Source: a bacterium (GTDB taxonomy: Bacteria > Zhuqueibacterota > Zhuqueibacteria > Oceanimicrobiales > Oceanimicrobiaceae). From it: a stretch of DNA of 64,000 nucleotides. The position numbers were made by a program, and so were the translations under genes. The stretch lies in NCBI GenBank assembly GCA_037446635.1, contig JBBIIG010000004.1:18943-82942 (forward strand), given 5' to 3'. The notes under the pieces are model-generated. The model had not been told where the DNA came from, did no database searches, and saw only the letters and a program-made list of their open reading frames with translations. This document shows, piece after piece, positions 3,712 through 17,794 of this stretch (its first letter is position 1; the number at the start of each line of letters is the position of its first letter).

Positions 3712-5820
3712 ATGCGCATACGGCTTTGCCTATTTTTGTTGCTGACTTACGTTATCTCGGTCAATGCCCAATCCATAAGCGGATTCACCGCCAATTCCGC
3801 CGTCACTCAAAAACAACTCGAAGAAAAATTTCTCGCGCTGCCGCGGCCGGAGAACGCGGAAAAATATTTATTCAAACTCACCGAAGAGCCGCACATCGCC
3901 GGCAGTCCGGAAAGCAAAGCGGTGGCGGAATACATTAATTCAAAATATCTCGAATGGGGACTTGACTCAAAGCTGGTGGAGTATCACGTCTATCTCCCCT
4001 ATCCGAAATCGGTGCAAGTGAAAATGCTGGCGCCAGACACCGTCGCGCTGAATTTGGTGGAAGACTCGTGGCGATTCGACAAAGACAGTTATGACTCCCA
4101 CGCGGTGACGGCCTTCAACGCGTATTCACCGTCAGGCGATGTGACGGCGCAGGTGGTGTACGTCAATCGCGGGCTGCCGGATGATTACGAAGCGCTGGCG
4201 GAATTGGGCGTCGAAGTGCGCGGCAAAATTGCGCTGGCGCGCTACGGCGGCAGCTTCCGCGGCGTGAAAGCGCAAGTGGCGGAGGAACACGGTGCCGCGG
4301 GACTCATCATCTACTCCGATCCCGCGGACGACGGTTACATGCGCGGCGACATTTATCCCAACGGGCCGATGCGCCCAGAGAATGCCATCCAGCGCGGAAG
4401 TCTGCTCTACATTTTCAACTACCCCGGCGATCCACTGACGCCCGGCTTTGCATCCATCAAAACTGCCAAGCGCCTCAAAGCCGAAGAAGCCCGCAGCATC
4501 ACAAAAACGCCGACGACGCCGATTTCATACAGCCAAGCGAGTCTCATTTTAAAAAGTCTCGCCGGTCCGGAAGTGCCGGAGGGCTGGCAAGGCGGGCTGC
4601 CGTTTCGGTATCATGTGGGGCCGGGGCCGGCGACCGTCCATATCAAATTGGAAATGGATTATCAAGTGCGCCCGATTTACAACGTCATCGCGGAAATCAG
4701 AGGCAGCGCGGAGCCGGACAAATTGGTGATCATCGGCAATCACCACGACGCGTGGGTGCACGGCGCGGTCGATCCCAGCAGCGGCACGGCGACGGTGATG
4801 GAAATCGGCCGCAGCTTCGGCGAGCTGCTGAAAACCGGCTGGCGGCCGAAGCGCACAATCATCCTCGCGCACTGGGATGCCGAGGAATACGGACTCATCG
4901 GTTCCACCGAGTGGGTCGAAGAAAAGAAAGCGGATCTGACGAAAAACGCGGCGCTGTACATCAACATCGACTCCGCGGTGTCCGGAAAAAATTTCGACGC
5001 CGGTGCTGTGCCCTCGCTGGATCGATTCATTCAAGAAGTCACGAAAGATGTAACCGATCCCAAAACGCAGCAAACGGTTTTTCAGCGCTGGTGGGTTAAT
5101 CAAAACAAAAAAGAATACAAGCGGCTGAAGCAAACCGTCCCCGACACCGCAGAAACCAAACTCGATCGCCTCGGCAGCGGCTCGGATTACACCGCATTTT
5201 TGCAGCACGTGGGGGTGCCGTCGCTGAGCATGGGATTCGGCGGACGCTACGGCGTTTATCATTCCATTCTCGATAATTTTTATTGGATGAAGAATTGGGG
5301 CGACCCGACGTTCGAATACCACGCGGCAATGTCGAAAATCGGCGGACTGATGGCGCTGCGTTTTGCGCAAGCGGATGTATATCCGTTCAATTATGCCGAT
5401 TACGCGGAGGCCATTGTCAAGCACTTCGAGGAATTAGAAAAATCGTTGAAGGAAAAATTTCTGAAAGTCGAAATTGATCTCACCGTTGCGAAAGACAAAG
5501 CCAACGAGTGGAAAAAAGCTTGTGAGGGCTTGAATGAGAAAGTTAAATCTGCGCTGGACTCCGGGGCCGTTCCTCCAGAATTGAATAGTTTGCTGGTGCA
5601 AATAGAGAGAGAATTGTTGGTCGAACCCGGTCTGCCCGGCCGCGACTGGTTCAAGCATCGCATTTACGCGCCGGGATTTTACACCGGCTACGCCTCGAAG
5701 CCGCTGCCGGGAATTTCGGAGCCGGCGGATAAAGCGGATTGGGAGGCGGCAAAGCGGGAGTTGGCGGTATTGATTCAAATACTGGATAAAGTTATTCAGA
5801 CTACACAAACTGAATTTTAA
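3712..5820 (+). CDS. Secreted M28-family peptidase with PA domain and transferrin-receptor-like dimerisation domain (glutamate carboxypeptidase II-like)
   Basis: Signal peptide MRIRLCLFLLLTYVISVNAQ. Zn-ligand region: HHDAWVHGAVDPSSGTATVMEIGRSF...AHWDAEEYGLIGSTEW. SD is GGAGGGAG. Confidence 0.85.
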   Translation: MRIRLCLFLLLTYVISVNAQSISGFTANSAVTQKQLEEKFLALPRPENAEKYLFKLTEEPHIAGSPESKAVAEYINSKYLEWGLDSKLVEYHVYLPYPKSVQVKMLAPDTVALNLVEDSWRFDKDSYDSHAVTAFNAYSPSGDVTAQVVYVNRGLPDDYEALAELGVEVRGKIALARYGGSFRGVKAQVAEEHGAAGLIIYSDPADDGYMRGDIYPNGPMRPENAIQRGSLLYIFNYPGDPLTPGFASIKTAKRLKAEEARSITKTPTTPISYSQASLILKSLAGPEVPEGWQGGLPFRYHVGPGPATVHIKLEMDYQVRPIYNVIAEIRGSAEPDKLVIIGNHHDAWVHGAVDPSSGTATVMEIGRSFGELLKTGWRPKRTIILAHWDAEEYGLIGSTEWVEEKKADLTKNAALYINIDSAVSGKNFDAGAVPSLDRFIQEVTKDVTDPKTQQTVFQRWWVNQNKKEYKRLKQTVPDTAETKLDRLGSGSDYTAFLQHVGVPSLSMGFGGRYGVYHSILDNFYWMKNWGDPTFEYHAAMSKIGGLMALRFAQADVYPFNYADYAEAIVKHFEELEKSLKEKFLKVEIDLTVAKDKANEWKKACEGLNEKVKSALDSGAVPPELNSLLVQIERELLVEPGLPGRDWFKHRIYAPGFYTGYASKPLPGISEPADKADWEAAKRELAVLIQILDKVIQTTQTEF

Positions 5821-6269
5821 AAATCTTTTCCCTTTTTAATTCTAGCAATACCTTGTGTCGCCTTGATGAGATGCCAGACAGTTTCTAAAAGCTCTTTATC
5901 TTTGCTCAAGTATTCGATGACCTCTTTTAAAATGTCCTCTTCCTTTTTACCGTAGTTTTTTAAATTTTCATCTCGAACTCTTAAACCAGATGCGGCGGCA
6001 GACTCGCTTAAGTATTTAGGCTGGTCGCCGCCTTCCAGCAGCCAGAGGATATTGACATTATATTTTCTCGCAAATTCGAGAATAAATGAGAGCGTTGGCA
6101 AATACTTACCGTTTTCCCACTCCGATACCGTGCCTTTACCAACATTAAATTCTTTTGCTATAATTTCTTGATTTAAATTAAGTTCTTTTCTTAGCAACCG
6201 AAACCGTTTGCCAAACTCTGTACTAAAATCCAAAATTTTTCCTCGAATATTCGATTTTTTACTTGACAT
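5817..6269 (-). CDS. XRE-family (Cro/CI-type HTH) transcriptional regulator
   Basis: LRKELNLNQEIIAKEFNVGKGTVSEWENGKYLP HTH. Low-GC gene at the island edge. Confidence 0.75.
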   Translation of the reverse strand: MSSKKSNIRGKILDFSTEFGKRFRLLRKELNLNQEIIAKEFNVGKGTVSEWENGKYLPTLSFILEFARKYNVNILWLLEGGDQPKYLSESAAASGLRVRDENLKNYGKKEEDILKEVIEYLSKDKELLETVWHLIKATQGIARIKKGKDF

Positions 6270-6373
6270 TCTCGGAATAACGAATTATATGCAATTGAAA
6301 AAAGCCTAATGTATTCTCACAAATTAATATAAAAAGGCTTTCCAGAATGTCAACATAAAATCAGGAGGGGAAG

Positions 6374-6673
6374 ATGGCAACCGAAGCAACCATCATTAAA
6401 CAAATTGAGAAAACGGCGGCAGGTAAATATTCGGATTGGCTAATTGGCCTTACGGATGATCCGGCTGTTCGCAAAGCTCAGCTCGACAATCCGCTGAGTT
6501 TCTTGCAGTGGAAAGCGGATACTGAACGAGCAGCAAAAAATGTCGAACGTTATTTTCTCGCGAAAGGAATGCACAGCGCGGGTGCCGCCCCACAATCCGC
6601 ACTACATGTTTATATTCTGCTGGCCATTAATCCGGGCAATACCTCTTCAGGAAAGTTCTCCGCACATTTCTGA
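6374..6673 (+). CDS. Hypothetical small protein (99 aa), divergent from the XRE regulator
   Basis: Strong AGGAGGGG SD 6 nt upstream of the ATG. No recognisable motif. Confidence 0.55.
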   Translation: MATEATIIKQIEKTAAGKYSDWLIGLTDDPAVRKAQLDNPLSFLQWKADTERAAKNVERYFLAKGMHSAGAAPQSALHVYILLAINPGNTSSGKFSAHF

Positions 6674-6733
6674 CCTACGGTGTTAATTTTCCTTCAAATC
6701 TGAGAGAACATCCCCTTCAAAATTGTCTATGTA

Positions 6734-7525
6734 TTGCCAAGGGGAATCTCTCTGATGTCCAAACCAAAACTGCTTATCTATTCTGAGCAACTGGCCAATT
6801 GTAGCTGCTTTCACACTGTCTTTAACACCAAATTTGAAGCAGAGGTGACATACCAGGAAACGCATTTCTTAAAAAAGATTCAGGAAGAAAACGTTGATAC
6901 GGCGGTGGTCTGTTTCTGCTCCGCCCAAGAAAAAGATGTGGAGCGATTGCTGCGGCTGGACGCCCTCACCGGCCCGGTGCCGGTGCTCACTTGTTCCCGA
7001 ACCCTAAATGCCGATTTTGTTCAGATGGGAGCCAAGCAAGGGGTGGATCGCTTTCTACAGTGTACCATGGAAGCTGAAAAAATTCATGACCTCATTTTCG
7101 AAGCCATTCGCCGCGGCGGTTTGAAGGAATATCTGAAATCGTGCACCCCCGGTAGCCTCGAGGCTTCTCCTTACGTGCGGAAAATGGTAGACGAAATCAT
7201 TCATGCTTTTCCCCATCGGCTGAAAGCGGAAGAATTGGCCGAACGGCTGGGCATAACCCGCCGCTGACTGCATAAAATTTGCAGACAAGCCTTCGGTAAA
7301 CCTTTCTCCCTGGTCATGCGCCGTATCTGGGTTCATCAGGCTTTGCGAATGATGCAGCATACCAACCTCGATAACACGGAAATTGCTCTGCAGCTCAATT
7401 ACAGTGAGGAGAGCAACCTGGCTCGTGATTTCCGCAGCGAACTGGGTTATAGCCCCACCGAAGCACGCCGAAGGCTTATCCAACACACCCCAGAAGAGTT
7501 ACTCATTCCCAAGAATAGTCCTTAA
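6734..7525 (+). pseudogene. AraC-family regulator (degenerate receiver-like N-domain + AraC HTH) interrupted by an in-frame TGA at 7265..7267
   Basis: ORF 6734..7267 ends ..AEELAERLGITRR*. The same frame continues LHKICRQAFGKPFSLVMRRIWVHQALRMMQHTNLDNTEIALQLNYSEESNLARDFRSELGYSPTEARRR, the AraC HTH signature. The ORF track splits it into 177-aa and 69-aa pieces. Confidence 0.65.
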
Positions 7526-7754
7526 ACAATGATTCCTTTCGACTATTTCTGGTCTCCCACTCTCCTTTTCACTCTTTCTCGTTTCACTTTTCACCTCTCA
7601 CGTTTCACCTGAAAATCACTTCCCATTTTGAACGAAAAGTTCCCATTTTGATTTGACGGAAAGAACATTTTTTAGTATTTTTGTTTAGTTTTCAGTTTAA
7701 AATAAGGTTAAATAAGGTAAATAATTACAGAGAATAGATTGCGAGGCAAGCCTG

Positions 7755-8975: not shown

Positions 8976-11276
8976 ATGCAGTGCAGAACCAATATCACTG
9001 TGTGGAAGGTCTTGTTTACCTTCCTGGTTCTTTCGATGGTCGTTTTTTCTAAAAAAACACTAGCCCAAGAAAATATAGATAATCAGATCGTGGTCATGTT
9101 CAAATCAGGCATAGTAAGCCTTCCCGATGGCCGCGATCGAGCGAATCTGGACGAGGCCACGCTTCCAACTCCACTTCGGACTTTACTAAAAGCCTTTGAT
9201 GCCCAGGAAATTGCAAAGGGAATCCCGGAATTCCAGCGTTCAGACACCTTACGCGTTCTACCAGATGGCCGATTGTTTAAGGTACCGGACTATACGAACC
9301 TGTTTGTCATTACATTGCCCACAGGATTACAACGAGAGGCATTGGTAGATTCCTTGGTGCGGTTCCCAATCGTGGTCAGTGCCGAAAAAAACCAGAGGGC
9401 CATTTTGCGGGAGACCATTCCCAATGATACACACTTCCAGGCCCGCCAATGGAATTTGAAAAACACGGGTCAATTTGGCGGCACGCCGGGCGCCGACGTC
9501 AAAGCAACTTTTGCGTGGGATATTACCAAAGGCAGTACTTCCGTTATCTTGGGTATTTTAGATTACGGAATACAATCAGGACATCTTGATTTGCAGGGCA
9601 AGGTTAGCGGTGACGCTGGTTATAGTGTTTCTCACGGAACCCATGTAGCGGGCATTGCTGGCGCACTTACAAATAACAACCGAGGCGTTGCCGGCGTAGA
9701 TTGGAATGCTCAGTTGGTTTCGCAACGAATAGATTTAGGCGGCATCCCAGAAATAGCACAGGCCGTCAACGATGCAGTAGCGGCAGGCGCACGGGTGTTG
9801 AACAATAGCTGGGGATTGCCAAGTTATTCTACGGTACTTTACAATGCGTTTCTATCCGCTTACCAAGCCGATGTCCTCTCCACTGTGGCCAATCCCGAAA
9901 CCGGCGCTACAGGTGAATTTCCAAACAGTTTCGGTACCTGGATTATGAATGTTGCTGCTACGACTAATGGAGATGCAAAAGCCAGCTATTCCTTCGATCG
10001 CAACTATACTGATGTTGGTGCACCTGGCGGCAATGCCGATGGAGTCTTAGAACGCAATATTTATTCTACAATTCCGGACAACACCTATGGTTATATGGCT
10101 GGCACTTCCATGGCTACTCCACACGTAACCGGCATTGCAGGACTATTGCTGGCCATCAATCCCAACCTGCACAATTATGATCTGGAGTGGATCATCAAAC
10201 GCTCTGCCAACGATATACCGCCTACGGGTCGAGACCCTAGCACCGGTTACGGTCGAGTTAACGCGTACGAGGCGGTGCGACATGTGGCTGCCCCGTATCA
10301 GATCACCCACGGCAATGCCACGTTGACGAAAACAAATAACAATATTCAGGTAACATTCTTAGCGCCACCGTTGCCGGAACTAGCGGCGGGGACTTACTGG
10401 GTAGATCGTTGGCAATTAGAAGCTGTTGTTAATTTCAATCCTATTTATTCTCAAACTCCATGGGCGTGGCTGAGCCAAACCGGCTATTCAGCAGCCAACC
10501 CCAACGATGCAAAAGAATACATGTATGAAAACTCCACGACATCTTCGACTACCATTAGAACCTTTTTCTATTATATAAGAACAAATCTCTTAGGACAAAC
10601 AATCAACAAATGGGCGCCGATGGATCCGAATATTTTATCTCGTCAATATGCTGTGTTAGGCACTCCGGCACCTCTGGCCGTCACCATCACCGGCCCGACC
10701 TCGCTGGGATACAAACAATCCGGCACGTGGACGGCCAATGCCTCCGGCGGCACGGGTTCGTACACTTACGAATGGCGGTTTCGTTACAATGGCACCGGCC
10801 CCTGGTCCAGTGTGGTGGGCACATCTCAAACCTATACCCGCACCATGTTAGACACCGATTTTGAGCTGCAGGTTAAGGTAACCAGTGGCGGTCAGAGTGT
10901 CTATGACACCCATTACGTTGATTACGGAGTGGCTAAAGAAGGCGTTGCTGATTCTGATGTGACGGTTCAAATCCCAGAACAATTTGCACTACATCAGAAT
11001 TATCCGAATCCGTTTAACCCGACTACCGAAATCAAATTTGAATTGCCAGAAAATGGCTACGTCACTGTAAGCATCTTTAACGCGGTGGGCCAAAGAATTC
11101 GTACTCTGGTAGATGAGCCCAAGACCGCCGGTTATCACAGCGTCGTCTGGGACAGCAAAGATGAGTCTGGTCACGAGGTGGCTTCGGGAGTGTATCTCTA
11201 CCGTATCTATGTCAGACCCGCTAATGCCAGCGGCCAACCATTCAAAGCGGTCAAAAAAATGACGCTTCTGCGATAG
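8976..11276 (+). CDS. Secreted subtilisin-like serine protease (peptidase S8) with T9SS C-terminal sorting domain
   Basis: Catalytic triad contexts: ILDYGIQSGHLDL (Asp), HGTHVAGIAGA (His), GTSMATPHVTGIAGLL (Ser). C-terminus LHQNYPNPFNPTTEIKFELPENGYVTVSIFNAVGQRIRTL...GVYLYRI. SD is AAGGAGG. Confidence 0.88.
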   Translation: MQCRTNITVWKVLFTFLVLSMVVFSKKTLAQENIDNQIVVMFKSGIVSLPDGRDRANLDEATLPTPLRTLLKAFDAQEIAKGIPEFQRSDTLRVLPDGRLFKVPDYTNLFVITLPTGLQREALVDSLVRFPIVVSAEKNQRAILRETIPNDTHFQARQWNLKNTGQFGGTPGADVKATFAWDITKGSTSVILGILDYGIQSGHLDLQGKVSGDAGYSVSHGTHVAGIAGALTNNNRGVAGVDWNAQLVSQRIDLGGIPEIAQAVNDAVAAGARVLNNSWGLPSYSTVLYNAFLSAYQADVLSTVANPETGATGEFPNSFGTWIMNVAATTNGDAKASYSFDRNYTDVGAPGGNADGVLERNIYSTIPDNTYGYMAGTSMATPHVTGIAGLLLAINPNLHNYDLEWIIKRSANDIPPTGRDPSTGYGRVNAYEAVRHVAAPYQITHGNATLTKTNNNIQVTFLAPPLPELAAGTYWVDRWQLEAVVNFNPIYSQTPWAWLSQTGYSAANPNDAKEYMYENSTTSSTTIRTFFYYIRTNLLGQTINKWAPMDPNILSRQYAVLGTPAPLAVTITGPTSLGYKQSGTWTANASGGTGSYTYEWRFRYNGTGPWSSVVGTSQTYTRTMLDTDFELQVKVTSGGQSVYDTHYVDYGVAKEGVADSDVTVQIPEQFALHQNYPNPFNPTTEIKFELPENGYVTVSIFNAVGQRIRTLVDEPKTAGYHSVVWDSKDESGHEVASGVYLYRIYVRPANASGQPFKAVKKMTLLR

Positions 11277-11426: not shown

Positions 11427-12860
11427 TTAATACTTCGGCACACTCGGATCCACCTCATCCGACCAGGCCAGAATCCCGCCTTTCAAATTCTTGACCTTCT
11501 CAAAACCGGCTTCCCGCAAAAACTTCACGGCTTTGGCGCTGCGGCCGCCCATCTTGCAATGCACGACAATTTCCTGTGAGCGATCCAATTCGTGAATCCG
11601 CGTGGGCAATTCATTGAGCGGAATCAGCTTCGAACCAGGAATGCGGCAAATTTCATATTCATGCGGCTGGCGGACATCGAGGATGAAAACGCCGCGATTG
11701 TTGGACAAGCGCTCATGCAACTGTCGCACCGTGATCTCGTTTTCCTCCGGCAGCACCACGCGATCCGCCGGCGTGCCGATGCCGCAGAATTGCTCGTAGT
11801 CAATCAAGGCATGAATGGTTGGATTTTCACCGCAGATCGGGCACTTGGGATCTTTGCGCAATTTCAATTCGCGATACTTCATGGCTAACGCGTCGTATAA
11901 AAGCAGCCGGCCAATCAGCGGCTCGCCTTTGCCGATGATCAACTTCACCGCTTCCGTGGCTTGCATCAGCCCGACCGTGCCAGGGAGAATGCCCAGCACC
12001 CCGCCTTCGGCGCAGCTCGGCACCAATCCCGGCGGCGGAGGTTCGGGATAGAGACAGCGATAGCACGGGCCCTCTTTGGCGTAAAACACCGAGACCTGCC
12101 CTTCGAAACGAAAGATGCTGCCGTACACGTTGGGCTTGCCCAGCAGCACACAGGCGTCGTTCACCAGATAGCGGGTGGGGAAATTATCGGTGCCGTCGAT
12201 GATGATATCGTAGTTCTCGAAAATTTGCAGCGCGTTTTCGGAAGTCAATCGCGTCTCGTAGGTATCCACCTCGACGTAGGGATTGATGCCCTGAATACGT
12301 TCCTTCGCCGCCTGCAATTTCGGGCGGCCGACGTCATTCGTTGAATAAATCACCTGCCGCTGCAAATTAGTAAAATCCACCACATCAAAATCGACGATGC
12401 CAATTCGGCCCACGCCCGCGGCGGCTAAATACAGCGCCACCGGCGAACCCAGCCCGCCCATGCCCACCAGCAGCACCTTGGCCTCTTTGAGTTTCCGCTG
12501 TCCTTCGAGCGCCACCTCCGGCATAATGAGATGCCGGCTGTAGCGTTCGATTTCTGCTTTCGAAAATTCACCGTTGCTGTCGCTGCCGCCGGCCACCGAT
12601 GGCACGATGCTGATGACGTCGCCGGCTTTGATGTTGGTTTCTGTGCCGCGAAGATAGCGCACGTCGTCATCGTTGACATAAAGGTTGACGAAATTGCGCA
12701 GGCGACCGTCCTCGCTAAAGAGATGTTTGCGCAAGTCGGGGAATTTCTCAGTGAGGTTGTCCAGCAGTTCGCCAACATTCTTTCCCTCTATTTGAACGCT
12801 GTCCTGATTTTTTGCATACTGGCGCAGCGCCGTCGGGATCAATATTTTTGTAGTCATCAT
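11427..12860 (-). CDS. Fusion of a CysO/MoaD/ThiS-like sulfur-carrier domain (ending in GG) with a MoeZ/MoeB-type E1 adenylyltransferase and a rhodanese domain
   Basis: N-terminal ~93 aa: ..VNLYVNDDDVRYLRGTETNIKAGDVISIVPSVAGG, then LVGMGGLGSPVALYLAAAGVGRIGIVDFDVVDFTNLQRQ (ThiF/MoeB). Zn ribbon CYRC..CPIC. C-terminal rhodanese VHCKMGGRS. Confidence 0.85.
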   Translation of the reverse strand: MMTTKILIPTALRQYAKNQDSVQIEGKNVGELLDNLTEKFPDLRKHLFSEDGRLRNFVNLYVNDDDVRYLRGTETNIKAGDVISIVPSVAGGSDSNGEFSKAEIERYSRHLIMPEVALEGQRKLKEAKVLLVGMGGLGSPVALYLAAAGVGRIGIVDFDVVDFTNLQRQVIYSTNDVGRPKLQAAKERIQGINPYVEVDTYETRLTSENALQIFENYDIIIDGTDNFPTRYLVNDACVLLGKPNVYGSIFRFEGQVSVFYAKEGPCYRCLYPEPPPPGLVPSCAEGGVLGILPGTVGLMQATEAVKLIIGKGEPLIGRLLLYDALAMKYRELKLRKDPKCPICGENPTIHALIDYEQFCGIGTPADRVVLPEENEITVRQLHERLSNNRGVFILDVRQPHEYEICRIPGSKLIPLNELPTRIHELDRSQEIVVHCKMGGRSAKAVKFLREAGFEKVKNLKGGILAWSDEVDPSVPKY

Positions 12861-12874
12861 TTTCTCTCCTCAAC

Positions 12875-13308
12875 TTACTCGTTCACTACAATGATTTTTT
12901 CTTGTTTGAATTTTGAGCGATCGTCTTCGAGCGTCCAGGAGGTGACATCGCTCGCTTTGCTATTTTTTATTGAAACGATGATATAGGAATACCACGGCCA
13001 ACCATGTTCAACATCATAGGCGGAGGGCCGCGCTTCGGCATTTGGGTGCGAATGATAAAAACCAATGATGTCGAGATTCTTTTGCTTAGCGTACTTTTGG
13101 CATTCGAGATAAGCTTGCGGCGTAATTAGAAAGCGATGATACTTCTCGGCGCTTTCGCGAGCATTGAGCGCTGGCAGTGTTGCCACCACTACTTTGTCGC
13201 CGTTCACATTTCTGCCCAATAAAAATCCGCAGCACTCGTCCGGATACGATTCCTCGCCGTATGCTTTGATTAATTCCAAATGCTGTCGATCAATCTTAAG
13301 CGCCATAA
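12875..13308 (-). CDS. JAMM/MPN+ metalloprotease (Mec+-like)
   Basis: Motifs EsyPdECCGFLLG and FYHSHPNAEARPSAYD (HxHx7Sx2D). The ATG at 13308 is preferred over the upstream extension. Confidence 0.8.
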
Positions 13309-14273
13309 TTATTTTCACTCCAAAATTTCTGATCGAAATATTTGTGCGCGCTGTCCGGAAAAATAGTGACAATAACTCCGCAGCCGATCTCCTTCGCAAC
13401 CTGCAGTGCCACGGCCAAAGCCGCTCCCGAGGAAATTCCTACGAGCAGACCTTCTTCCTTTGCCAAAAGTTTCACCATGCGCTGCGCCTCTTCGGTGCTC
13501 ACGGTGCGATTGTCATCCGCTAAATCCGGCTGATAAAAACCCGGCACGATGGCGGTCTCCATGTGCTTCAAACCTTCAAGACCGTGGAATGGCGAATCGG
13601 GTTGCACCGAGATCAATTTAATTTCTTCGTTATATTCTCGCAAAAAAAGCCCCGAGCCCATAAACGTGCCGCTGGTGCCAAGCCCCGCAACAAAATGGGT
13701 AATGCGGCCTTCGGTTTGCCGGATAATTTCCGGGCCCGTACTATCATAATGCGCCAGCCAGTTGGCGCGATTGTTATACTGATCGGCATAAAAATAGCGC
13801 TCCGGCTCTGCCGCAAAAATTCGGCGCGCTTCGCGAATGGCGCCGTCGGAGCCTTGCTGGGGATCGGTCAAAATCAATTCCGCGCCATACGCTCGCAAAA
13901 TTTGCTGAAAGATGTTGCCGGAATTCTTTGGAATCGCCAACTTGACTTTGTATCCCAAATTCGCGCCGTACATGGCGTAGGCGATGCCGGTATTTCCAGA
14001 GGTGGCGTCGAGGATAATTTTATCCGGTGTGAGTTGCCCCGATTTTTCGCCTTCTAAGATAATGTTCAAAGCCGCGCGGTCTTTCACGGAGCCGCCGGGA
14101 TTGAACCACTCGGCTTTGGCGTAAATTTCCACTGGCGCCACACGCGCGGAAATTTTGGCAAGATAAATCAGCGGCGTGTTGCCAACGCGGCTGAGGATAG
14201 ATGGTTTGCGATCGCCGCCTTCAGAGAGCGTCTCCGCAAACGGCTCGAATATTGTCGCTGCTTCTGTTTGCAT
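13296..14273 (-). CDS. cysM: Cysteine synthase (PLP-dependent, CysM/CysK family), probably sulfur-carrier (CysO-thiocarboxylate) dependent
   Basis: ..KAEWFNPGGSVKDRAALNII.. PLP-lysine motif. Gene order cysM-mec-cysO/moeZ as in the mycobacterial CysM/CysO/Mec+ system. Confidence 0.85.
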   Translation of the reverse strand: MQTEAATIFEPFAETLSEGGDRKPSILSRVGNTPLIYLAKISARVAPVEIYAKAEWFNPGGSVKDRAALNIILEGEKSGQLTPDKIILDATSGNTGIAYAMYGANLGYKVKLAIPKNSGNIFQQILRAYGAELILTDPQQGSDGAIREARRIFAAEPERYFYADQYNNRANWLAHYDSTGPEIIRQTEGRITHFVAGLGTSGTFMGSGLFLREYNEEIKLISVQPDSPFHGLEGLKHMETAIVPGFYQPDLADDNRTVSTEEAQRMVKLLAKEEGLLVGISSGAALAVALQVAKEIGCGVIVTIFPDSAHKYFDQKFWSENNYGA

Positions 14274-14289
14274 TTTAAGCCTTTCTATT

Positions 14290-14520
14290 AAAACAAAAAA
14301 CCCACATCGTGTGAATGTGGGTTATGATTTTGGTATGCTAACTTGATTTAAGAATATCAAAACTTCAACATAACCCACCGCTCCATTTCATACAACAGAT
14401 GCACGCGCTGCACACCATCCAGAATTGATTGCAGGGGCCCATGAAGTTTTGCATTTGAATTTTCATCGCGTTGTTCAATTTTGACGAACAAATGTACGCC
14501 ATCGTTTATTTCAAGTCAAG
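14290..14520 (-). promoter_or_regulatory. Candidate transcription attenuator of the cysM operon: Cys-rich leader ORF plus mutually exclusive antiterminator and terminator hairpins
   Basis: On the minus strand: TTGACT-17-TACATT promoter-like hexamers (14519..14491). Leader ORF 14466..14365. Antiterminator arms are GTGGGTTATG (14378..14369) and CATAACCCAC (14326..14317). Terminator is AACCCACAT-TCACACG-ATGTGGGTT (14323..14299) plus TTTTGTTTT (14298..14290). It ends ~16 nt before the cysM ATG. Confidence 0.6.
14365..14466 (-). CDS. Putative cysteine-rich leader peptide MKIQMQNFMGPCNQFWMVCSACICCMKWSGGLC (6 Cys/33). The in-frame upstream ATG at 14502 would give 45 aa with 7 Cys
   Basis: ORF read from the sequence. 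No clear SD. The stop codon TGA abuts the antiterminator 5' arm. Confidence 0.45.
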   Translation of the reverse strand: MKIQMQNFMGPCNQFWMVCSACICCMKWSGGLC

Positions 14521-14543: not shown

Positions 14544-14948
14544 TCAATTGGCGCGAGTTTTAGACCACTCTTTGATGTAGGCGATGATGTCGCTAGTGCT
14601 CGATCCCGGGCCGAAAATTTTGCCTGTGCCCATTTTCTCCAATGCCTCCACATCTTCCGGGGGGATGATGCCGCCGCCGGTGAGCAGCACGTCGGTCAAT
14701 CCCTTTTCGTCCATTAATTTTTTGATGCGCGGAAAGAGCGTCATGTGGGCGCCGGAGAGAATGCTGAGCCCGATAACGTCCACGTCTTCCTGCAACGCCG
14801 CCTCGACGATCATCTCCGGCGTCTGATGCAAGCCAGTGTAGATCACTTCAAAGCCGGCGTCGCGCAGGGCGCTGGCGATGACTTTGGCGCCGCGGTCGTG
14901 GCCGTCCAATCCGGGCTTGGCAATAAGTACGCGAATTTTACGTTCCAT
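14544..14948 (-). CDS. Methylmalonyl-CoA mutase small subunit (cobalamin-binding domain)
   Basis: B12-binding Rossmann fold: ..[34 protein letters not shown].. Confidence 0.85.
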
Positions 14949-15173: not shown

Positions 15174-16831
<1,658 letters not shown>

Positions 16832-16835
<4 letters not shown>

Positions 16836-17794
16836 GATTTTTCTCCGAGTTTGCGTTTGAAATTCGCGATGAGTTCCTCAGCGATTTTATACGGGGACAA
16901 ACTTGAATCTTGATAATTTTCTAATTTCTCGTGCAACGTTTGGCGGGTGGCGTCATCCCAAAATGCTTTCTCAAATCGAAAGCGCACAATGTTATGAACT
17001 TTTTTGAGCAGCCGCGTTTTGCGTTTTTGCTGCAGAAGATTCTGTTCGATCAAAAATTTGCGATGCGCTTCGATGGCCTCGGCAATTTCGCCAATGCCGT
17101 CGCCCTGGCTGGCAATGGCGCGCAAAACTTTCGGCTGCCACGGCTGCCTTTCGCGGAGTTGCAAAATGGCTTGCAGCTCGGAAATGACGCGGTTTGAGCC
17201 TTCGCGGTCGGCTTTGTTGACCACGAACAAATCGGCGATTTCCATCAGGCCGGCTTTCATGGCTTGCACGGAATCGCCGGACTCCGGTACCAGGACGACA
17301 ATCGTCGTGTCGGCGCTCTCGGCGATGTCCAGCTCGGATTGTCCCACGCCCACGGTTTCGAGCATCACATAATGTTTGCCGGCGGCGTCGAGGATGTCAG
17401 CGGCGTCATCGGCTTTCTTCGAGAGCCCACCCAAGCTGCCGCGCGTGGCCATGCTGCGAATGAACACGCCGTCGTCGAGCGTTACATCCACCATGCGGAT
17501 GCGATCGCCCAACAGCGCGCCGCCCGTGAACGGACTCGTGGGATCCACCGCGATGATGCCCACGGTTTGGTTGCGGCGGCGATAAAGTTTGGTGAGCTGA
17601 TCCACCAGCGTGCTTTTGCCGGCGCCCGGCGGTCCGGTGATGCCAATACGATAAGCGTTACCAATCTTAGGATAAATCGCATCGAGCAAGTTAGCGGCAT
17701 CCGCGACCTCATCCTCCACCAGTGAGATGGATTTGGCGAGGGCGCGTTTATCGCCGCTGAACAGATTTTTGATTATTTGATGAGACACGTTCAT
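16832..17794 (-). CDS. meaB: Methylmalonyl-CoA mutase-associated GTPase MeaB/ArgK
   Basis: [14 protein letters not shown]-loop, ..NKADREG... The stop overlaps the start of the mutase large subunit. Confidence 0.85.

Follow-up and report, generated by a model that had tools for sequence, protein, structure and literature searches.

The stretch of DNA analysed here, referred to as the window, comprises 64,000 nucleotides of contig JBBIIG010000004.1 (GenBank assembly GCA_037446635.1) from a bacterium of the Zhuqueibacterota. On its minus strand, between positions 11427 and 14273, lie three genes that encode a cysM-like cysteine synthase, a JAMM metallopeptidase and a 477-residue protein in which a CysO-like sulfur carrier is continuous with a MoeZ-type activating enzyme (E1) and a rhodanese domain. 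We consider it probable that these genes form a cysteine-regulated operon for protein-thiocarboxylate-dependent cysteine synthesis of the CysO/CysM/Mec+/MoeZ type, in which the carrier is translated as an E1-fused precursor and matured by the JAMM enzyme. The first gene (13296-14273) encodes a 325-residue synthase dependent on pyridoxal 5'-phosphate, the second (12875-13306) a 143-residue JAMM/MPN+ peptidase, and the third (11427-12860) the fusion protein. The ATG of the JAMM gene at 13306 overlaps the cysM stop by 11 nt, and a 14-nt spacer with a GGAG ribosome-binding site inside it separates the JAMM stop from the fusion gene. A preliminary description of this DNA had given the same gene order, which is borne out at these coordinates.

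The fusion protein contains three recognisable domains. Its N-terminal CysO/MoaD-type beta-grasp (residues 1-92; 12585-12860) matches the Pfam family ThiS/MoaD (PF02597) over residues 6-92 at 1e-14, reaching the last position of the profile, while ThiF (PF00899) covers residues 107-341 at 1e-88 and Rhodanese (PF00581) residues 378-468 at 1e-21. The ThiF/MoeB-type adenylation domain (residues 101-341; 11838-12560) carries the RYSRH and GxGxxG motifs, the CxxC...CxxC pairs and the SCAEGG loop, and the rhodanese domain (11457-11729) has its active-site cysteine, Cys435, in the motif HCKMGGRS. The MoeZ model aligns from residue 96, at model position 12, to the C-terminal end. MoeB and MoeZ models score the E1 at 527 to 576 bits, with PRK07878 (MoeZ) at 527 and PRK07411 at 576, both under their equivalog cutoffs, and the E1 matches the Uba4 structure 6yub_A at 1e-66. 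Judged from its sequence, the protein is essentially a complete carrier abutting a MoeZ-type enzyme that is itself nearly complete, the two being separated by a few linker residues. The direct fusion to a ThiF/MoeB adenylyltransferase plus rhodanese claimed in the preliminary description is thus supported by both the Pfam and the MoeZ-model alignments. A protein identical to the fusion is present in NCBI (P0001).

The end of the carrier domain is defined by its alignment with solved CysO proteins. Residues 4-92 align with residues 3-93 of the 93 in Mycobacterium tuberculosis CysO (3dwg_C) and with residues 3-90 of the 90 in CysO of A. orientalis (Amycolatopsis; 4n6e_B). These alignments run end to end and thus equate G92 with the last glycine of CysO, the residue that becomes thiocarboxylated. 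The NCBIfam models for SAMP1 and archaeal MoaD (moaD_arch) also match above their cutoffs over residues 13-92, SAMP1 at 61.4 bits against a cutoff of 60. An AlphaFold2 monomer of the fusion, with a predicted local distance difference test (pLDDT) score of 83.9, shows a confident beta-grasp at residues 1-87 and a confident E1 and rhodanese, and its pLDDT falls below 50 at residues 90-97, which hold the two glycines and the linker. The preliminary description had placed here a beta-grasp of about 93 residues ending in VAGG. Its MoaD/ThiS fold is upheld by Pfam, NCBIfam, the CysO alignments and the structural model, and the two glycines (GG) do lie at the domain boundary, a position that the CysO alignments confirm and that is invariant among homologues; the numbering requires correction, since the glycines are G91 and G92 rather than residues at about 93.

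These two glycines are encoded at 12585-12590, and the predicted scissile bond, placed there by their invariance in homologues, is G92|S93. G92 is followed by 385 in-frame residues without a stop, so that the carboxylate of the carrier is not free in the translation product and a free end would need proteolysis. The linker SDSNGEFS (residues 93-100; 12561-12584) is hypervariable among homologues and, consistent with the low pLDDT in this part of the model, is predicted to be disordered.

The fusion is genuine and not an artefact. A word-indexed protein search shows that more than 120 clusters carry it, of which 120 were listed, at 66-100% identity. Nearly all of these span the whole query, with three partial proteins at 86-93%; ThiS and ThiF are present in all, and Rhodanese in all but one partial protein. 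Most fusion homologues are named 'MoeB' or 'adenylyltransferase/sulfurtransferase', and the close relatives carry the labels Caldithrix, Calditrichaeota, KSB1 or Nitrospinae. A sequencing or assembly artefact in which a stop codon was lost is ruled out by the occurrence of the fusion in these clusters and in the genomes of 65 species described below.

Conservation across this junction is sharply partitioned. All 120 listed clusters have P-[SA]-[VI]-A-G-G, then a freely varying stretch, then the N-terminal helix of the E1, E-[IV]-x-R-Y-S-R-H. Invariant columns in 61 aligned homologues include P87, A90, G91 and G92, together with the zinc-site cysteines of the CxxC pairs, the SCAEGG loop and rhodanese Cys435. 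Between GG and the arginine of RYSRH, in contrast, 97 distinct linkers of 11-35 residues occur, and the residue directly after GG (P1') is unconstrained, being S, N, A, R, L, T, K, V, G, M, Q, C or I. The linker of this protein contains no Met or other plausible internal start, and no linker Met is conserved in the homologues. An internal translation start yielding free E1 is ruled out on these grounds, and the E1 is therefore made only as part of the fusion.

The invariance of the carrier terminus bears on a different reading, in which the beta-grasp stays attached as a docking or regulatory module of the E1 and a separate free carrier encoded elsewhere transfers the sulfur. Iyer et al. (2006) concluded as much for ubiquitin-like (Ubl) domains fused to ThiF, given the stand-alone ThiS that co-occurs with them (PMC1779556), and the genome search for such a carrier here was confined to 64 kb. 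However, the domain aligns with CysO from end to end, AGG is invariant at its boundary while the next residues vary, and its orthologues in split operons of this family are stand-alone carriers. Furthermore, a search of the 64-kb window found no second ThiS-like, E1, JAMM or CysM gene, and the neighbours of the fusion gene in the operon are cysM and the JAMM gene rather than the thiamine genes thiG, thiH or thiC. A permanently attached module is, on this evidence, very unlikely.

The same family in other species supports a carrier that is made as a precursor. A scan of one genome per species yielded the 80 best-matching loci, chosen by similarity to the fused query. All 80 encode a carrier domain and an E1-rhodanese, fused in 65 and split in 15. 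They belong mostly to Acidobacteriota, with Gemmatimonadota, Armatimonadota, Chloroflexia, Kryptoniota and a few others, and two are labelled archaeal. In none of the 15 split loci does the carrier end at GG; each keeps 1-24 residues after it, namely MY, ARDRV, NGDR, AGNKRAR, LRGENIGD, CVNRAG, VAVVR, CCPCGCCCCPR, CSALNK, D, AA, V, R, VTMVIHDA and one tail of 24 residues. The pattern recurs in an exhaustive HMMER search with residues 1-135 against 1.84 billion representatives (50% identity), which gave 6173 matches. The best 150 were classified by what follows GG and not by protein length, since short contigs leave most matches fragmentary: an E1 follows in 72, other sequence (a mix of short tails and truncated fusions) in 66, 10 lack a recognisable motif and 2 end at GG. 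In a rough neighbour-joining tree built on the E1 domain, at least eight changes between the fused and the split state occur.

As far as the encoded proteins reveal, this carrier clade is made with a blocked C-terminus whether fused or split, and the nature of the block is evolutionarily labile. Since GG is followed by further residues in fused and split members alike, trimming after GG would be a general requirement of the clade. All 15 split pairs share one reading frame, even with several stops in between (L003 to L078, junctions at about 6274-6400). This shared frame is probably a ranking bias of the tblastn retrieval and not biology. Its interpretation as a sign of very recent nonsense mutations was considered and rejected, because a split operon retrieved independently has its two genes in different frames.

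Two further arrangements of the carrier were observed in this clade. P0195 (L082, 6-524), P0207 and P0226 contain two tandem CysO-like beta-grasps, each ending in GG, and resemble precursors of the polyubiquitin type; P0195 ends exactly at its second GG. P0237, of 634 residues, has another domain order, with an N-terminal region, a carrier (160-252, ending PAISGG), a rhodanese and then the E1.

Cysteine is frequent in the post-GG sequences. About 6-7 of roughly 22 short tails are Cys-rich: CCPCGCCCCPR, CCALI, CCCCCCL, ACACYCPCRMNA, ACCRSKHLAR, CCVMTCGT and ...SCCCPSCCCR. They occur in the carriers of L030 (about 5547-5585) and L081 (599-940) and in P0177, P0178, P0239, P0243, P0245 and P0261; the operon of P0178 reads 328aa-JAMM-ThiS-ThiF/Rhodanese. 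Such tails could serve as a second Cys-codon sensor upstream of moeZ or could mimic the carrier-Cys product.

This touches on a broader alternative, in which the blocked GG is a control device, the uncleaved fusion being an auto-inhibited zymogen, the post-GG sequence a second cysteine sensor, or both. In the zymogen version, the tethered beta-grasp may occupy the site at which the E1 binds its Ubl, either in cis or across the E1 dimer, without being adenylatable, and the JAMM would license each pair of E1 and carrier. In the sensor version, poly-Cys tails (GG-CCCCCCL, GG-CCPCGCCCCPR) upstream of moeZ may couple E1 synthesis or carrier maturation to the cysteine supply. We regard such a control function as rather unlikely.

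A precursor matured by proteolysis calls attention to the JAMM gene. Its open reading frame (ORF) as listed starts at a TTG at 13399; a start at the ATG at 13306 is plausible instead, as this codon has a GGAG-like ribosome-binding site, and translation from it gives the 143-residue product. This product matches Prok-JAB at 6e-22 and JAB at 1e-8 in Pfam, and among solved structures it is closest to 2kcq_A, determined by NMR (1e-27). Its sole NCBIfam match above noise is the desampylase model, at 69 bits and under the cutoff of 130. The metal site, on which the preliminary description had relied, is intact and consists of the catalytic E24 (YPDECCG) together with HSHPNAEARPSAYD, which conforms to HxHx7Sx2D. 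Probes made from the window proteins place a JAMM gene directly upstream on the same strand in 77 of the 79 assessable loci, often overlapping and with a gap of at most 202 nt in 75; at least 76 of these 77 neighbours retain an intact metal motif. Most of the 80 loci also have cysM upstream of the JAMM gene, and the order cysM-JAMM-fusion recurs in L079, labelled Nitrososphaerales.

Some loci depart from this layout. One of the two without an adjacent JAMM, L062, has a fused gene (5992-7452) with flanking genes on the opposite strand, and the other, L036, has a split gene (5932-7620). In L029 (57-1457), CysM and JAMM lie in one 467-residue ORF followed by a CysO-MoeZ fusion, and the four activities would therefore sit on two polypeptides; the contig is a short one from a metagenome-assembled genome, and an assembly or frameshift artefact is possible.

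We infer that the adjacent JAMM is the carrier-trimming enzyme, in agreement with the preliminary description, which had predicted this release and a possible cleavage of Cys from the CysO-Cys adduct; we take that model to explain the data best. The carrier could also be released by a housekeeping protease or by self-cleavage, with the JAMM merely recycling carrier-Cys adducts as Mec+ does. In favour of this, M. tuberculosis MoaX must be cleaved for activity (PMC4326299). The linker here is predicted to be disordered and so would be open to any protease, and L036 and L062 have no adjacent JAMM. We know of no protease to which the cleavage of MoaX has been assigned. Adenylation, however, needs an exact Gly92 end, and a non-specific protease acting on a hypervariable linker would produce ragged termini. 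HvJAMM1, PfJAMM1 and DR0402 recognise the Ubl body and cut after the last Gly whatever follows (PMC8832034), and the unconstrained P1' residue fits recognition of this kind. The fusion has no autoprocessing motif. Together these points make release by another protease, or by the fusion itself, unlikely.

With the JAMM as the trimming enzyme, the proposed cycle proceeds in five steps. First, the 477-residue protein is made with the carrier GG buried in a peptide bond, as its reading frame dictates. The adjacent JAMM would then cut after G92, within the flexible linker, to yield a carrier of 92 residues whose Gly-Gly carboxylate is free and an E1-rhodanese of 385 residues. This cut is required because adenylation needs a free glycine carboxylate, as established for ThiS, MoaD and CysO (PMC3227635). 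By analogy with the MoeZ and Uba4 families, the E1 would adenylate G92, and a persulfide on rhodanese Cys435 would lead to the thiocarboxylate. If CysM acts as in M. tuberculosis, its aminoacrylate intermediate would react with the thiocarboxylate, and an S-to-N shift would yield carrier-GG-Cys. Finally, a second JAMM cut behind GG would free the cysteine and return the carrier to the cycle.

The last of these steps accounts for the freedom observed after GG. Mec+ hydrolyses CysO-Cys, that is, the peptide bond after GG (PMC3227635). Maturation and recycling would be the same chemistry at the same bond, so that anything encoded after GG would be tolerated, and tails, whole-E1 fusions and in-frame splits would interchange freely because the peptidase of the cycle itself removes the residues behind GG. 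As a refinement of the preliminary description, we suggest that this is probably why the fusion can be tolerated, gained and lost with such ease. A further advantage may be that carrier and E1 are co-expressed in equimolar amounts.

A leader peptide rich in Cys codons, together with a terminator, appears to control transcription of the operon. The 270 nt upstream of cysM hold four leader elements, all on the minus strand. A sigma-70-like promoter, TTGACT-17-TACATT (14491-14519), is a consensus match only, of a kind that does not occur in the region above the number expected by chance. It is followed by a leader ORF (14365-14466) that reads MKIQMQNFMGPCNQFWMVCSACICCMKWSGGLC and then stops, with 7 Cys and 5 Met among 33 residues. 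A 10-nt candidate antiterminator segment, GTGGGTTATG (14369-14378), overlaps the end of this ORF, and its sequence complements the 5' arm of an intrinsic-terminator-like hairpin (14289-14323), which has a 10-bp stem, a 5-nt loop and a T tract and ends 16 nt before the cysM ATG. In the fold of a transcript truncated before the 3' arm, the antiterminator pairs with that 5' arm; a transcript that contains both arms still has the terminator as its minimum-energy fold.

The upstream region looks like a cysteine-sensing leader-peptide attenuator, whose alternative-structure logic is partly backed by folding. A scan of the whole window at Rfam gathering thresholds gave no match to a known RNA element, upstream of cysM or elsewhere. 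Leader ORFs with Cys runs (CCCC, CCCCC or containing CCC) also precede cysM in L001, L021, L022, L046, L055, L069 and L073, which represent several phyla, and in L001, L021, L022, L069 and L073 the leader is followed by a strong hairpin and a T run. Attenuation of cysteine operons by poly-Cys upstream ORFs is known from mycobacteria (bioRxiv 10.1101/834739), and poly-Cys leader ORFs were predicted in Actinobacteria in 2005 (PMC1262725). The Cys-codon leader upstream of cysM is further support for a role of the operon in cysteine synthesis.

The synthase itself belongs to PF00291 (1e-66) and most closely resembles cysM, scoring 334 bits against TIGR01138, under the model cutoff of 394. Its best solved relatives are the enteric CysM structures 2jc3 and 2bhs, at 1e-66, while M. 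tuberculosis CysM (3dwg_A) follows at only 4e-54; the ranking in this search of the Protein Data Bank does not separate a preference for O-phosphoserine from one for O-acetylserine.

The carrier and the JAMM also resemble components of protein conjugation. The operon might thus serve mainly SAMP/Urm1/TtuB-type conjugation or another thiocarboxylate product, with the JAMM as a deconjugase and cysM only loosely associated. The beta-grasp does reach the SAMP1 cutoff, and desampylase is the one NCBIfam model to which the JAMM shows similarity above noise. Yet cysM is translationally coupled to the JAMM gene here and conserved upstream in most of the 80 loci, the Cys-codon-rich leader is what end-product control of cysteine synthesis would be expected to use, and no E2-like or other target-related gene is present. 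Conjugation as the main role is highly improbable.

Several observations weigh against a JAMM-matured carrier for cysteine synthesis. The CysM sequence is nearer to enteric CysM than to the CysO-dependent enzyme of M. tuberculosis (Rv1336), and both the use of a protein thiocarboxylate and a serine-derived substrate are therefore assumed. L036 and L062 carry the carrier/E1 gene with neither JAMM nor cysM beside it, and adjacency of a JAMM is in itself not diagnostic of processing, given that M. tuberculosis Mec+ adjoins a CysO that already ends at GG. In addition, the ratio of fused to split genes among the 80 loci is biased by selection with a fused query, and many of the representative proteins are fragments. 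Finally, the literature searched contained no experiments on any CysO-E1 fusion.

The genes on either side of the operon have no evident tie to it. Convergent on the operon, at 8976-11276 on the plus strand, is an ORF whose translation reads as a 766-residue secreted subtilisin-like protease. Upstream, three minus-strand genes (14544-14948, 15174-16835 and 16832-17794) apparently encode the B12-binding and catalytic subunits of a methylmalonyl-CoA mutase and a MeaB-like GTPase.

A comparison with the CysO/CysM/Mec+/MoeZ(R) pathway of M. tuberculosis (Burns et al. 2005, summarised in PMC3227635) reveals the same four activities from the same protein families, with a cysteine synthase gene beside a JAMM gene. 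The two differ in the carrier: CysO ends at GG in M. tuberculosis, whereas the carrier of the window forms the N-terminal part of the E1 protein and has no free GG. They also differ in gene order, which here is cysM-JAMM-(cysO::moeZ). The moeZ gene of M. tuberculosis is not known to be linked to its mec-cysO-cysM genes. Replacement of the free GG by a precursor, in what is otherwise a member of the CysO-type pathway, groups the locus with carrier precursors matured by JAMM enzymes.

Such precursors are found in other sulfur-transfer systems. HcyS/HcyD comprises a tailed sulfur carrier and a JAMM encoded in its cluster. QbsD is reported to trim CF from QbsE (GG-CF), and CxnF has been proposed to remove ten residues from CxnE, hydrolysis behind GG being the opening step proposed (PMC5925218). 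All three systems share with this family residues after GG and a JAMM in the cluster, and the split relatives described above carry tails of just this kind. The difference is one of scale, as the 'tail' here is a whole activating enzyme of 385 residues, and of product, which is proposed to be cysteine in place of the siderophore, antibiotic or homocysteine of those systems.

MoaD-MoaE fusions offer an architectural parallel, since a carrier is again fused upstream of an enzyme of its pathway. D. radiodurans DR0402 cleaves the MoaD-MoaE fusion DR2607 and exposes the terminal Gly (PMC8832034). Across DR2607/DR0402, H. volcanii SAMP1-MoaE/HvJAMM1 and M. tuberculosis MoaX, cleavage after GG is needed for activity and a JAMM has been shown to perform it (PMC8832034, PMC4326299), as we propose for the fusion here. 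In these proteins, however, the partner is the sulfur-accepting synthase subunit and not the E1, and the pathway leads to molybdopterin.

Earlier genomic surveys had already encountered much of this arrangement. In Iyer et al. (2006), row 4c of Table 1 gives the neighbourhood of ThiS/MoaD, E1-rhodanese, JAB and cysteine synthase, including that of an acidobacterium, and release of fused ThiS/MoaD by JAB is proposed (PMC1779556). Makarova and Koonin (2010) list 'Ubl-E1-TBP in Thaumarchaeota' as a fusion 'shared with bacteria' (PMC2948915). The Ubl-ThiF proteins of thiamine operons treated by Iyer et al. likewise have an N-terminal beta-grasp fused to an E1 adenylation domain; they differ in having a separate ThiS and no JAMM, and their Ubl was judged not to be a carrier, a context that the present locus lacks. 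In the passages of the two papers that were consulted, a CysO-type fusion with rhodanese, or an obligatorily blocked GG as a system, does not appear, and the literature searched held no description of CysO-MoeZ, MoaD-MoeB or ThiS-ThiF fusions named or tested as such. The novelty implied by the preliminary description was nevertheless overstated, because the operon type, Ubl-E1 fusions and maturation of carriers by JAMM enzymes are all published. The locus is a widespread, under-annotated variant of a known system and not a new kind of system.

If the proposal is correct, the CysO-type carriers of a large clade are without exception synthesised as precursors that a deubiquitinase-like JAMM matures, in Acidobacteriota, Gemmatimonadota, Armatimonadota, Chloroflexia, Kryptoniota, relatives in KSB1/Calditrichota and some loci labelled archaeal. 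The free interchange of carrier-E1 fusions, short tails and splits would then be accounted for as well. In annotation, a bare 'MoeB' label hides both the carrier and the cysteine pathway. The three genes make a compact and easily reconstituted system for the interplay of Ubl, E1 and deubiquitinase; the poly-Cys tails, the tandem carriers and the CysM-JAMM fusion are side features. Current understanding is not overturned, as every ingredient has published precedent.

A further parallel is with eukaryotic ubiquitin, whose precursors, polyubiquitin and the fusions of ubiquitin to ribosomal proteins, are processed by deubiquitinases. In both cases GG is made within a peptide bond and release falls, or here would fall, to an enzyme of a deubiquitinase family, and tandem di-carriers occur in this clade as well. 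The partner here, however, is the E1 itself, and the released Ubl would be a sulfur carrier rather than a known protein modifier. If the proposed maturation holds, the operon is a bacterial sulfur-transfer counterpart of ubiquitin precursor processing.

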